Sequence record: PQ850614.1 | Reading direction: 5' to 3' (one strand) | DNA: 64,000 nucleotides | Origin: Escherichia phage LorandFenyves_Bas91 | In this document: positions 33,022 to 34,383 of the stretch, one piece after another | How positions within the stretch are numbered: position 1 is the first letter of the stretch | Layout: the number at the start of each line of letters is the position of its first letter | Notes under the pieces: generated by a model | Database searches by the model: none | The model's input: the letters and a program-made list of their open reading frames with translations, nothing else | What the model was told of the DNA's origin: nothing | Position numbers and translations under genes: made by a program

Positions 33022-34383
33022 TTAGTTATTTGTTTCCATGTCAAAAGAGATTCCACGACCCGCTTCATCGGCAAACCGAACTGTTCGGGTTTGAGGTTCT
33101 AATACTTCAGGGTTGTTAGCAACAAACCGATCAGCGAGACTACGACTGACAGTCTCAGCTAATTCACCATGAGAAGGGATATCAAGACTACCTACCACAT
33201 CTTGGGCCACACCTTCATCAGTCCACACAGCCCTAACAGGTGCGTTGATATCACCAACAGCAAAACCCTGACCAGAGAACTGACGTGCGCTAACAGTTAA
33301 ACCGTTTGGTCGACCACGAGAAGGTCTAGCCATCCATCGCTCCATAGAATCACTTGTAATACCAAGAGCTTCTTCAAAAGATGTTCTACGAGTAGGGCTT
33401 ACTCTTCGTGACTCTTGTGCTCGACGCATTGCAGGGGCTACAAACACCCCTTCAATTGCATTGTGTCGGTTAGGTTCCTCTTCTCGACCAAGCAGATCAC
33501 CACCCGTGTTAGTCGTTAAATTTGTCAACCCCTCAGACCAATACGCATGAATCTGACCAGAACCGTGAAGGCTAGACATAATCTGAATCTCTTCATAAGG
33601 GATTCCAAAGAATCGACTCATGTCTCGGTTGACACAATATAGAGCACTTGTTGTATCTTCAATAAGAGAAACCTGACCTAATCCATTGACTAAATGACTA
33701 ACTGGCTGAGGTGTGGGAAGATATCGAGTTTGGGCCATGTATTGATGTGCAACTGCTGGAGAGGAAAATCTCAACACTTGTGAGTTAGGCCACTTCTTGT
33801 GAACATACCTGATTTCACGACTAGAGACAACCACTGGACAAGGGGAAGTCATAGCCAAATATCCGTGAGAAGTCATGAATAATTTGTCAAGAGTCATCGC
33901 ACCACGGCACATCATAGGAAAATTATCCAATACCTCTTCAATAGAAGTAGGATAATTAAACATGAATTGGATACGAACCCCATTCCACTGAAACTCAATA
34001 ATATCAGTGAATGTTAATTGAGAACCCCCAGCATAGGATTCGTTTGTAGCTTCAGCAAGAAGTGATGCATATTCAATATCTTGTGACTCTAGCCATTCCT
34101 TCACATTACTTTCAATCTCCCGTCCAAGCTCTTGCCAACGATCAGTTGGGATGAAAGTGTTTTGAGTTCTTGGTGTTTGTCCTCTGACAATAAAGATATC
34201 AATGTCATGTGGAGCTATGTTATTAAGGACAGCATCACGAACAGCCCCACCAGTAATGATGGGACAGATACCATCTGGAATCAAGTTGTTGTTAATCAAC
34301 TGTTCAATGAAGTGACGACCAACAGTGATATCAGGTTGTTGAGCAACCTTATCTTCAATTTGGTTAATCGGGATAACAATCAT
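33022..34383 (-). CDS. Pol-beta-superfamily nucleotidyltransferase (CCA-adding/poly(A)-polymerase-like head domain)
   Basis: N-terminal ITGGAVRDAVLN...HDIDIFIV matches the GGxVRD...DxD head motif of class II tRNA nucleotidyltransferases; start at internal ATG. Confidence 0.55.
   Translation of the reverse strand: MIVIPINQIEDKVAQQPDITVGRHFIEQLINNNLIPDGICPIITGGAVRDAVLNNIAPHDIDIFIVRGQTPRTQNTFIPTDRWQELGREIESNVKEWLESQDIEYASLLAEATNESYAGGSQLTFTDIIEFQWNGVRIQFMFNYPTSIEEVLDNFPMMCRGAMTLDKLFMTSHGYLAMTSPCPVVVSSREIRYVHKKWPNSQVLRFSSPAVAHQYMAQTRYLPTPQPVSHLVNGLGQVSLIEDTTSALYCVNRDMSRFFGIPYEEIQIMSSLHGSGQIHAYWSEGLTNLTTNTGGDLLGREEEPNRHNAIEGVFVAPAMRRAQESRRVSPTRRTSFEEALGITSDSMERWMARPSRGRPNGLTVSARQFSGQGFAVGDINAPVRAVWTDEGVAQDVVGSLDIPSHGELAETVSRSLADRFVANNPEVLEPQTRTVRFADEAGRGISFDMETNN

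Follow-up and report, generated by a model that had tools for sequence, protein, structure and literature searches.

A stand-alone class II-type nucleotidyltransferase in the DNA replication module of a Kuravirus, with an architecture other than that of CCA-adding enzymes

The 64,000-nucleotide stretch of phage LorandFenyves_Bas91 DNA that was analyzed (the window) belongs to a Kuravirus, a phiEco32/SU10-like coliphage, and is 98% identical to vB_EcoP-CHD5UKE1. It carries a nucleotidyltransferase (NTase) gene that is the ortholog of SU10 gp074 and CHD5UKE1 gp075, with amino acid identities of 97% and 99.8%, respectively. The phrog_12715 profile covers the protein from residue 1 to 453 at profile positions 1 to 457 (E value of 2e-262, 872 bits), and the existing annotation of SU10 gp074 and phrog_12715 is "nucleotidyltransferase (class II CCA-adding domain)." This class II-like annotation dates from the 2014 paper on the genome of SU10, and the paper on the BASEL phage collection drew attention to the gene (2025, PMC11990801). 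The gene, the parts of its product, and the relevant features of the window are as follows:

33022..34383, minus strand: nucleotidyltransferase gene from the open reading frame list, 453 amino acids, with the TAA stop codon within the end coordinate
34198..34251, minus strand: motif A, GGAVRD-x9-DID (G45, G46, R49, D50, D60, and D62), sequence GGAVRDAVLNNIAPHDID, the signature with which class II enzymes bind metal and triphosphate
33514..34383, minus strand: folded, family-conserved core, residues 1 to 290, from the AF2 model, the family alignment, and dN/dS
33025..33513, minus strand: C-terminal tail, residues 291 to 453, lineage specific, rich in R, S, G, A, and E, prone to indels, and of low prediction confidence
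33025..33123, minus strand: conserved extreme C terminus, residues 421 to 453, …PQTRTVRFADEAGRGISFDMETNN, acidic and aromatic
34385..34942, minus strand: 3'-5' exonuclease subunit of a split family-A DNA polymerase (DNA_pol_A_exo1, PF01612, E value of 1.3e-8), upstream of the NTase
32479..33012, minus strand: dCTP deaminase (DCD, PF22769, E value of 3.5e-34), directly downstream of the NTase
34936..36726, minus strand: T7 gp4-like primase/helicase (DnaB_C, E value of 1e-10, and annotation of homologs)
24455..26299, minus strand: polymerase subunit of the split family-A DNA polymerase (DNA_pol_A, PF00476, E value of 2.5e-23), 8 kb from the exonuclease subunit
29709-30365: ThyX
51014-51089: tRNA-Arg(TCT), the sole tRNA of the window

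The position of the gene between those of the polymerase exonuclease and the dCTP deaminase, reported in a preliminary description of this DNA, is borne out by the Pfam assignments of both neighbors (PF01612 and PF22769). A thioredoxin gene is also found within the window, besides the T7-like primase/helicase and the family-A polymerase. Because an M-I-x-I-P N terminus is common to all homologs, including those of 25 to 30% identity, the ATG at position 34383 is taken as the start codon; an alternative in-frame GTG at 34440, 19 codons upstream, would run into the exonuclease gene. Only 1 nucleotide separates the exonuclease stop codon from this ATG (…ATG TAA A ATG…), a junction that indicates translational coupling. 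The dN/dS ratio is 0.10 for residues 1 to 200, 0.19 for residues 201 to 290, and 0.38 for the tail, as calculated over eight genomes from several sources, a mixed sample that was taken because an IMG/VR scan gave two loci only.

The GGxVRD…DxD motif noticed earlier at the N terminus is indeed present as motif A. The pattern GG.[VIL]RD.{5,15}D.D has a single match in the six-frame translation of the window and none in 200 shuffles, and G45, G46, R49, D50, D60, and D62 are unchanged throughout the family (29 of 29 members), even at 20% identity. Motif A aligns with the GGAVRD…D.D of solved CCA-adding enzymes. The sole Pfam match of the protein is to the PolyA_pol head (PF01743; residues 43 to 124, E value of 0.0023), with 18.7 bits against a cutoff of 23, and close homologs reach 18.9 to 21.9 bits; beyond residues 43 to 124, nothing was matched in Pfam, NCBIfam, or the PDB sequences. 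Neither NCBIfam nor PADLOC matched the NTase, none of the RNA-binding domain families was matched in the Pfam scan, and searches of PDB sequences with phmmer and with the family profile retrieved CCA-adding enzymes over no more than the 21 residues of motif A. At the level of structure, the best 35 Foldseek matches in the PDB are all class II enzymes, with TM-scores of only 0.23 to 0.30. The gene product is a Pol-beta-superfamily NTase with a class II-type head.

The architecture of the NTase is nevertheless not that of a CCA-adding enzyme. In class II enzymes, the RRD of motif B recognizes the ribose 2'-OH and the EDxxR of motif D is the amino acid template for CTP and ATP; between them, the two motifs provide selection of ribonucleotides and templating of C and A. 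Neither is conserved in the family: the positions that precede F155-P156 hold L/S/C, D/E/G, and R/S/T/N, where the equivalence to motif B was judged by sequence pattern and hhalign/AF2 topology and not by residue-level superposition, and for motif D, the arginine at +2 occurs in only 11 of the 29 members. The sole conserved acidic-basic element past the hairpin is R189-[DE]190-x-x-Y193-x-x-[KR]196-K197. Profile alignment with hhalign covers the motif A region alone in Escherichia coli Cca (probability of 33%) and gives a probability of 11% with PcnB, both values being of low power as the targets are single sequences. The label of a CCA-adding/poly(A)-polymerase-like enzyme therefore stands for the type of head (motif A and the PolyA_pol head match below threshold) and fails for the body, RRD, and EDxxR. 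The preliminary description had named the absence of a tRNA-binding body domain as evidence against its assignment, and there is no such domain, the confident fold ending at about residues 285 to 290 and the rest having a pLDDT below 50.

These features bear directly on the role first suggested for the gene, in which CCA addition would restore tRNA acceptor ends harmed by host tRNA-targeting defenses, or poly(A) would be added to RNAs. Such a role would agree with the class II-type head, with class II enzymes as the best structural matches, and with a motif A of the same style as in CCA-adding enzymes. Some relatives are named "putative tRNA nucleotidyltransferase/poly(A) polymerase," although these are names and not tests; in phages phiAS7 and Ka1, genes for polynucleotide kinase and/or metallophosphoesterase accompany that of the small NTase, which amounts to an end-healing repertoire, and RNA binding by the basic, flexible tail is conceivable. 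It is opposed by the missing neck, body, and tail domains, by the lack of conserved RRD and EDxxR, by a PolyA_pol head below the gathering threshold with no match to RNA-binding families, and by an hhalign similarity to E. coli Cca that is limited to the motif A region. The phage does carry its own tRNA-Arg, as had been observed, and this single tRNA, Arg(TCT) at 51014-51089, has its 3'-CCA encoded in the gene. No tRNA genes are present in the genome of phiAS7, whose small related NTase adjoins the DNA polymerase. Together, the encoded CCA and the relative in a tRNA-less phage weaken the notion of the phage tRNA as the client of the NTase. In Kuravirus, moreover, the gene sits consistently amid DNA replication genes and not among tRNA or RNA repair genes. 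As nothing specific speaks for it, repair of tRNA 3' ends or tailing of RNAs by the NTase is unlikely.

Part of the extension of approximately 350 amino acids that the preliminary description could not assign has now found a place: residues ∼65 to 290 make up the rest of the NTase core and a helical subdomain, whereas residues ∼291 to 453 are a lineage-specific tail of low confidence. The core combines the class II-type head with a beta-hairpin region and a small subdomain of helices; its pLDDT in the AF2 model is mostly 80 to 93 over residues 1 to 285, and residues ∼65 to 290 are conserved within the family, the short members of which have 274 to 320 amino acids in total. The family-specific conserved residues are W97, E99, Y117, D/E127-I128, Q139-x-M141, [FM]155-P156-x-x-[CSA]159, R189-[DE]190-x-x-Y193-x-x-[KR]196-K197-x-P199, and [WYF]282-[ST]-x-G285. 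Among these, Y117, D/E127, Q139, F/M155-P156, R189-D/E190, Y193, and K196-K197 are conserved putative pocket residues of the NTase's own. Position 127 is acidic in 28 of the 29 sequences of the family, a set that reaches down to 20% identity, and the invariant Tyr117 is located in a flexible loop beside the active site of the AF2 model. On the strand that classically bears the third carboxylate, an invariant Gln139 is found where an acid is expected.

This glutamine, together with a long tail that suggests a scaffold role, could indicate that the protein is catalytically inert and serves the replisome as a structural or regulatory accessory, having merely kept an NTase-like fold. However, the invariance of GG, R49, D50, D60, and D62, combined with D/E127 in 28 of 29 members, is a pattern typical of active enzymes, and the core is under strong purifying selection, which makes an inert protein highly improbable. 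Judging from this residue pattern, the NTase is apparently catalytically competent.

The tail differs from the core in nearly every respect. It is unalignable across Kuravirus, Suseptimavirus, and Nieuwekanaalvirus, residues 361 to 420 contain gaps in 16 to 29% of close homologs, and the pLDDT is below 50 for residues 286 to 420 and 423 to 453, where the alignment of the tail is shallow. The tail is probably largely unstructured; as its charge-hydropathy plot, a composition-based test, is borderline, the disorder stays a prediction. Within the tail, residues 421 to 453 share 90% identity among Kuravirus homologs versus 58% for residues 391 to 420. Related endings occur in distant members, namely, RFSF(N), RVSFS, RRFNF, EDLLPF, EYDF, and TWDW, and 10 of 27 members end in an aromatic residue versus 9.4% expected, in a count that ignores kinship among the members. 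This segment is a candidate short docking motif.

The family to which the NTase belongs is small. A search of 1.84 billion representatives gave only 203 clusters at an E value of ≤1e-3 and 23 at ≤1e-30, and the sampled distant members match PHROGs (phage protein families). The NTase is part of a phage-only clade, phrog_12715 (Gordonclarkvirinae), which by profile and model comparisons is remotely related to phage NTases of about 200 amino acids (phrog_1614) and to the anti-Gabija protein Gad2 through its NTase domain. The phrog_1614 profile matches the NTase with an E value of 1.9e-7; examples of this group include phiAS7 gp03 (Aeromonas), Pseudomonas phage Ka1_49, Phapecoctavirus gp114, and a protein of Providencia phage PS3 labeled "Poly A polymerase head domain-containing protein." A functional study of phrog_12715 or phrog_1614 NTases was not found in the literature.

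The exonuclease-NTase-dCTP deaminase synteny is kept in SU10, SU7, Bas89, EP335, and metagenomic relatives, and in Gordonclarkvirinae and related metagenomic contigs, the order of primase/helicase, exonuclease, NTase, and dCTP deaminase holds even at 25 to 30% identity. Being inherited within the group, this synteny is not independent evidence. Outside it, the NTase of the Aerosvirus phiAS7 (Foldseek E value of 1.2e-6) lies between ligase and DNA polymerase with junctions of 3 to 4 nucleotides, and in the Gyeongsanvirus RsoP1EGY, one small gene separates the NTase from a downstream Pol I. The Bruynoghevirus Ka1 has Pol I, SSB, and flap endonuclease genes followed by the NTase and then endonuclease I, and Phapecoctavirus has Pol I, three small genes, the NTase, a hypothetical gene, and SSB. 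In all, five phage groups unrelated to one another carry NTases of this kind next to genes for a DNA polymerase, an exonuclease, a ligase, or an SSB.

Phage gene neighborhoods partly mirror common expression timing instead of common function, which speaks against reading a role in replication directly from them.

Since the gene has long been annotated, it is in itself no discovery. What is new is its non-CCA architecture, the recurrence of phage-only stand-alone class II heads by DNA polymerases, and the remote link to Gad2. We tentatively favor the interpretation that the NTase is a replisome-associated, template-independent enzyme that acts on nucleic acid ends, rather than one that synthesizes CCA de novo, and that its action is possibly protective. 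Through translational coupling to the exonuclease subunit of the polymerase, the NTase would be made alongside the replisome. D60 and D62, probably with D127, and two metal ions would then support untemplated nucleotide transfer, with an NTP or dNTP as the donor, to the 3'-OH of an end that arises in phage DNA replication, be it the terminus of a DNA molecule, a nick or gap, or a primer. In T7 gp2.5 and gp4 and in E. coli SSB, acidic aromatic tails bind replisome partners, and the tail of the NTase may likewise tether it to a partner in the replisome. The likely gain for the phage would be nucleic acid ends that are shielded or masked from host end-sensing nucleases and defense systems. Gabija is listed as DNA-end sensing in a 2026 review (PMC12904381).

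A narrower form of this proposal, in which a replisome-tethered terminal transferase hides phage DNA or nascent-strand ends from Gabija and RecBCD-linked systems by untemplated addition or capping, is doubtful. If a terminal transferase were at work here, it would show what Gad2-like NTases do, would contribute to the unexplained broad resistance of Gordonclarkvirinae to defense and restriction-modification (RM) systems, and would set the first precedent for DNA as the substrate of a class II-type NTase.

The same resistance has been approached from another side. For the conserved locus of dCTP deaminase and nucleotidyltransferase, a covalent DNA modification pathway, in which the NTase would act with the adjacent deaminase, has been proposed in relation to the RM resistance of Gordonclarkvirinae (PMC11990801). 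Sites for GATATC (31 sites), EcoKI (7), and AGACC/GGTCT (90) are not avoided in the window, so that RM resistance to such enzymes does not stem from loss of sites, which is in line with modification. Restriction-site avoidance as the full cause of RM resistance was accordingly rejected for EcoRV, EcoKI, and EcoP1-type sites, a result that does not tie modification to the NTase gene. Yet dCTP deaminase, ThyX, and thioredoxin form an ordinary set for dTTP supply, and related NTases adjoin polymerases in phages that have no dCTP deaminase neighbor. We know of no described phage DNA hypermodification pathway with a class II-type NTase, which also counts against such a role. These genomes are, furthermore, routinely sequenced, and the literature considered mentions no anomalies. 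Taken together, participation of the NTase in DNA modification is quite improbable.

The link to Gad2 lends the favored interpretation an anti-defense precedent and also opens a different route to protection. Gad2 carries an NTase domain and is required for Gabija to be overcome, and its SPbetaL7 copy is toxic upon expression (10.1101/2023.05.01.538930). Kuravirus homologs of the NTase show a weak match to Pfam Gad2 (PF26128), the precomputed one on homolog P0016 being marked "weak," and PF26128 was absent from the local Pfam scan results for the NTase and its close homologs. With hhalign, the family aligns with Gad2 with a probability of 58% and an E value of 9.7e-5 over 116 columns, within Gad2 residues 15 to 134, and bridging small NTases match the Gad2 HMM at 1e-21. 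Orthology to Gad2 was ruled out, as the pairwise BLAST was empty and the Gad2 HMM, built from 120 homologs, misses the NTase; no closer Gad2 homolog is encoded elsewhere in the window. A 77-kb genome with a Gad2-like match, "Escherichia phage 19-1-2," was rejected as a Kuravirus, since it is an Avunavirus.

By analogy with Gad2, the NTase might neutralize Gabija or another system without any involvement of nucleic acid ends, through a nucleotide-derived small molecule or through nucleotidylylation of a host protein. The weak PF26128 matches, the profile-profile similarity, and the bridging NTases are consistent with this, as is the experimental need for Gad2 against Gabija with the toxicity of the SPbetaL7 copy (10.1101/2023.05.01.538930). 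Gordonclarkvirinae resist nearly all tested defenses (PMC11990801), and the invariant Tyr117 could be a site of auto-nucleotidylylation or a residue that gates the substrate. The kinship is, however, remote and restricted to the NTase core, the C-terminal region of ∼250 amino acids of Gad2 is not common to both, and PADLOC has no match. The gene also belongs to the core of the replication module, where it is fixed, syntenic, and under strong purifying selection (dN/dS of 0.10), whereas many anti-defense genes occupy variable accessory loci. We consider Gad2-type anti-defense rather unlikely. An action on ends at the replisome is kept as the tentative interpretation; determining the activity of one member could explain a widespread uncharacterized class of phage genes, and possibly the action of Gad2. 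As genetically tractable coliphages, Kuraviruses and their BASEL relatives (Bas86 to Bas93) are a practical test ground.

Compared with class II tRNA nucleotidyltransferases and bacterial poly(A) polymerase (3aql, 1miv, 4wby, 3h37, and 1ou5), the NTase lacks the neck, body, and tail helical domains, has other conserved residues in the putative pocket, carries a fast-evolving tail of ∼165 amino acids, and is encoded in a DNA replication module. To our knowledge, all structurally characterized class II enzymes use RNA 3' ends and none uses DNA, which speaks against the favored action on DNA ends. NTase toxins of the MenT/AbiEii type and the stand-alone "CCA-adding enzyme head domain" 2la3 gave structural scores below those of class II enzymes, and in contrast to MenT/AbiEii-type toxins, the NTase has neither a toxin-antitoxin context nor a PADLOC match. 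Gad2 (SPbetaL7 ORF159 and the Brevibacillus laterosporus homolog) and the NTase are both phage encoded and have in common GG…DxD, a Gln that is invariant in the strand after it, and the motif F-x-x-x-C-x-G. The two differ in that Gad2 has GGxITS in place of GGxVRD, and that Gad2 (∼400 amino acids) has a structured C-terminal region of ∼250 amino acids, with invariant columns, that has no counterpart in the NTase. The Gad2 locus, moreover, is a variable anti-defense locus of Bacillus phages with no annotated replication module. The phrog_1614 NTases (∼185 to 270 amino acids) are only ∼15 to 17% identical to the NTase and are devoid of its family-specific subdomain of residues 200 to 290 and of its long tail. 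They nonetheless resemble it as stand-alone class II-like heads (Foldseek E values of 1e-6 to 6e-8, target-normalized TM-scores of 0.5 to 0.63), and their genes likewise adjoin those of DNA polymerase, ligase, flap endonuclease, or SSB.

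The NTase gene, for which a nucleotidyltransferase had been proposed, is a minus-strand open reading frame wedged, as the preliminary description had it, between the polymerase exonuclease and dCTP deaminase genes.

33022-34383, minus strand: NTase, 453 aa, ATG start
34198-34251, minus strand: NTase motif GGAVRDAVLNNIAPHDID, the sole match in the six-frame translation (0 in 200 shuffles)
34385-34942, minus strand: DNA_pol_A_exo1 3'-5' exonuclease subunit, 185 aa, upstream neighbor of NTase
Further upstream, beyond the exonuclease subunit: DnaB-type primase/helicase
32479-33012, minus strand: dCTP deaminase, downstream neighbor of NTase
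24455-26299, minus strand: family-A polymerase subunit, ~600 aa, 8 kb from the exonuclease subunit

The family-A DNA polymerase is thus split, its exonuclease and polymerase subunits being encoded separately. The ATG is assigned as the NTase start because all homologues, very distant ones included, begin with M-I-x-I-P; an alternative GTG (to 34440) would run into the upstream gene. This ATG lies 1 nt past the exonuclease stop codon (…ATG TAA A ATG…), which indicates translational coupling of NTase to the exonuclease subunit.

ThyX, thioredoxin, a ferritin/Dps-like protein, and an amidoligase/GATase/gamma-glutamyl cyclotransferase (GGACT) cluster are also encoded near NTase. Just past dCTP deaminase, downstream, come three tandem small genes (31863-32478, minus strand; 69, 69, and 65 aa), paralogues that have diverged to 23 to 28% identity and have in common a T-R-x-x-A-R-x-x-K core and a terminal …V-x-Y. 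The ferritin/Dps-like protein (30905-31516, minus strand; PF00210, E 5e-7) is publicly labeled either “DNA binding protein” or “integrase,” and the latter looks like a mis-annotation. Upstream of the replication genes, the segment 36946-46527 (minus strand) encodes GGACT, an ATP-grasp-like protein, a glutamine amidotransferase, Amidoligase_2, and a COOH-NH2 ligase-like product, a predicted peptide or metabolite-ligation pathway. Its GATase/GGACT part is conserved in distant metagenomic relatives that keep NTase, and Amidoligase_2 in one of two.

The region is 98.4% identical in DNA to Escherichia phage vB_EcoP-CHD5UKE1 and 98.1% to SU10, both of the genus Kuravirus (Gordonclarkvirinae, phiEco32 group). 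NTase shares 99.8% of its amino acids with the CHD5UKE1 product and 97% with SU10 gp074, and phrog_12715 matches it end to end (872 bits). In the SU10 genome paper, a single peptide from PEG-concentrated lysate reveals the protein, which is placed among the early gene products (PMC4281155), and the BASEL paper points out the conserved dCTP deaminase/nucleotidyltransferase/replication locus (PMC11990801). Given the SU10 annotation and these two papers, the gene and its label are already known and discussed.

Pfam retrieves the PolyA_pol head domain alone, below threshold (18.7 bits versus 23; residues 43 to 124), and searches of NCBIfam, PADLOC, and PDB sequences gave no match past the 21-residue motif A. 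In an AlphaFold2 model based on 16 homologues, confidence is high over residues 1 to ~285 (block means mostly 80 to 93) and very low (<50) for residues 113 to 120, 286 to 420, and 423 to 453. Class II CCA-, CC-, or A-adding enzymes account for every one of the best 35 Foldseek PDB matches, at E 9e-6 to 9e-4 and with TM-scores of only 0.23 to 0.30 that correspond to about one matched domain; TENT5, CD-NTases, Pol X, TUTases, and MenT score ≤7.8 in structural comparison with solved structures. Because the former are all class II and the latter score lower, the head belongs to the class II type, and this part of the preliminary description stands.

In an alignment of 29 family members reaching down to 20% identity, G45, G46, R49, D50, D60, D62, F64, Y117, I128, and Q139 are invariant and D/E127 occurs in 28. 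Family-specific motifs are [FM]155-P156-x-x-[CSA]159, R189-[DE]190-x-x-Y193-x-x-[KR]196-K197-x-P199, and [WYF]282-[ST]-x-G285. The catalytic signature is intact and under strong purifying selection; that NTase serves as an inert scaffold is scarcely credible. The invariant Tyr117 (codon 34033-34035, minus strand; 29/29) sits in the sole low-confidence loop of the core, residues 113 to 120, and could be a substrate gate or a nucleotidylylation site.

In class II enzymes, motif B (RRD) and motif D (EDxxR) serve to read the ribose and to template the addition of C and A. The positions that match these two motifs by pattern are not conserved among the 29 members. NTase has no tRNA-binding architecture: no helical neck, body, or tail resembling a tRNA holder is present, and the shortest family members total 274 to 320 aa. 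The CCA-adding function once proposed is therefore, on the preliminary description's own terms, architecturally unsupported. The sole phage tRNA, tRNA-Arg(TCT) (51014-51089, minus strand), had been offered as a possible client; its gene encodes the 3'-CCA after discriminator A (…CGTCCCG-A-CCA), so no de novo CCA addition is needed and one rationale for such an enzyme disappears. Repair or tailing of tRNA or other RNA 3' ends, to which the class II head had pointed, is unlikely.

When 1.84 billion representative proteins were searched exhaustively with the family profile, only 203 clusters reached E ≤ 1e-3, and 23 of them E ≤ 1e-30. Close members are of the Gordonclarkvirinae kind, and metagenomic relatives at 25 to 30% identity keep the order primase/helicase, exonuclease, NTase, dCTP deaminase. 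The distant matches are proteins of ~180 to 270 aa, and all six sampled match phrog_1614 (“nucleotidyltransferase”); BFVD fold matches, too, fall on small proteins of phages (Providencia PS3, Aeromonas phiAS7, and Vibrio VEN). Gene order around these relatives was also examined in four additional, unrelated groups of phages.

phiAS7 (Autographiviridae): ligase, NTase, DNA polymerase, with 3- to 4-nt junctions
RsoP1EGY: NTase directly upstream of Pol I
Bruynoghevirus Ka1: Pol I, SSB, flap endonuclease, NTase, endonuclease I
Phapecoctavirus: Pol I, three small genes, NTase, hypothetical gene, SSB

Within the replication module, the place of NTase is fixed. That such NTases recur next to polymerases is the strongest hint of function, which could partly reflect co-expression. 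The phiAS7 genome has no tRNA gene at all, and it combines the related small NTase with a polynucleotide kinase and a metallophosphoesterase (3050-3661 and 37513-39020), together a nucleic-acid end-healing set. Our preferred reading, held tentatively, is that NTase would transfer a nucleotide, without template, onto a nucleic-acid 3'-OH arising in phage DNA replication, with a protective or anti-defense benefit and possible tethering to the replisome by its tail. The weight of the finding grows substantially only if a DNA-end or anti-defense reading is true.

The BASEL paper offers the speculation that a covalent DNA modification depending on this locus might account for the restriction-modification resistance of these phages (PMC11990801). 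Restriction-site avoidance in the window (1-64000) is strong and selective: CCWGG occurs 2 times versus ~72 expected and GATC 144 versus 237, thirteen palindromic hexamers (e.g., GGATCC, CTGCAG, CCATGG) are missing, and palindromic hexamers overall reach 0.63 of the composition expectation. EcoRV (GATATC, 31), AAGCTT (31), EcoKI (7), and EcoP1-type AGACC/GGTCT (90) sites show no avoidance. As the EcoRV, EcoKI, and EcoP1-type sites are unavoided, these phages must have some anti-restriction mechanism; no observation links it to the NTase gene, and participation of NTase in base modification with dCTP deaminase is very unlikely.

Precomputed Pfam annotation links many Kuravirus homologues to PF26128, “Gad2,” a match marked weak on one of them (P0016). 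Gad2, a phage protein of 400 aa, has a predicted NTase domain; SPbetaL7 becomes sensitive to Gabija once Gad2 is deleted, and a Brevibacillus homologue abolishes Gabija defense (10.1101/2023.05.01.538930). A February 2026 review lists Gabija as DNA-end sensing and the Gad2 mechanism as still unknown (PMC12904381). Profile-profile comparison of the family with the Gad2 alignment gave E 9.7e-5 and 58% probability over 116 columns, covering the shared GG…DxD, invariant Gln strand, and F-x-x-x-C motif. Pairwise BLAST of NTase against Gad2 gave no match, a Gad2 HMM from 120 homologues did not detect the window protein while matching small “bridging” NTases at 1e-21, and the C-terminal ~250 residues of Gad2 have no counterpart in NTase. 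Orthology is rejected on these grounds, and NTase is probably a remote Gad2 relative inside a broad phage NTase assemblage. That NTase is an anti-defense enzyme of the Gad2 type, with a small molecule or a protein as its substrate, is a somewhat unlikely alternative.

The tail (residues ~291 to 453), the possible tether in the 3'-OH transfer reading, is unalignable across the orthologues from Kuravirus, from Suseptimavirus SU7, and from Nieuwekanaalvirus EP335; the identity that these share (32 to 41%) is confined to residues 1 to ~245, and indels occur within Kuravirus tails. Constraint is weaker on the tail (dN/dS 0.38 versus 0.10 for residues 1 to 200 and 0.19 for 201 to 290), in which R, S, G, A, and E are overrepresented. 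Its disorder stays a prediction, based partly on a shallow alignment, because the charge-hydropathy test is borderline. The last 33 codons (33025-33123, minus strand) have a dS of 0.13 versus 0.5 to 0.6 in the 5' two-thirds across eight Kuravirus genomes, which suggests nucleotide-level constraint, for example, from signals for the dCTP deaminase gene 9 nt downstream, or recent recombination. The last ~30 residues are 90% identical within Kuravirus versus 58% just upstream. Distant members often end in aromatic or acidic-aromatic residues (RFSF(N), RVSFS, RRFNF, EDLLPF, EYDF, TWDW, RWQW), the final residue being aromatic in 10 of 27 members versus 9.4% expected, uncorrected for phylogeny. The C termini of T7 gp2.5 and gp4 and of E. 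coli SSB dock partner proteins, and the resemblance of the NTase ends to them is a lead toward a docking-type C terminus.
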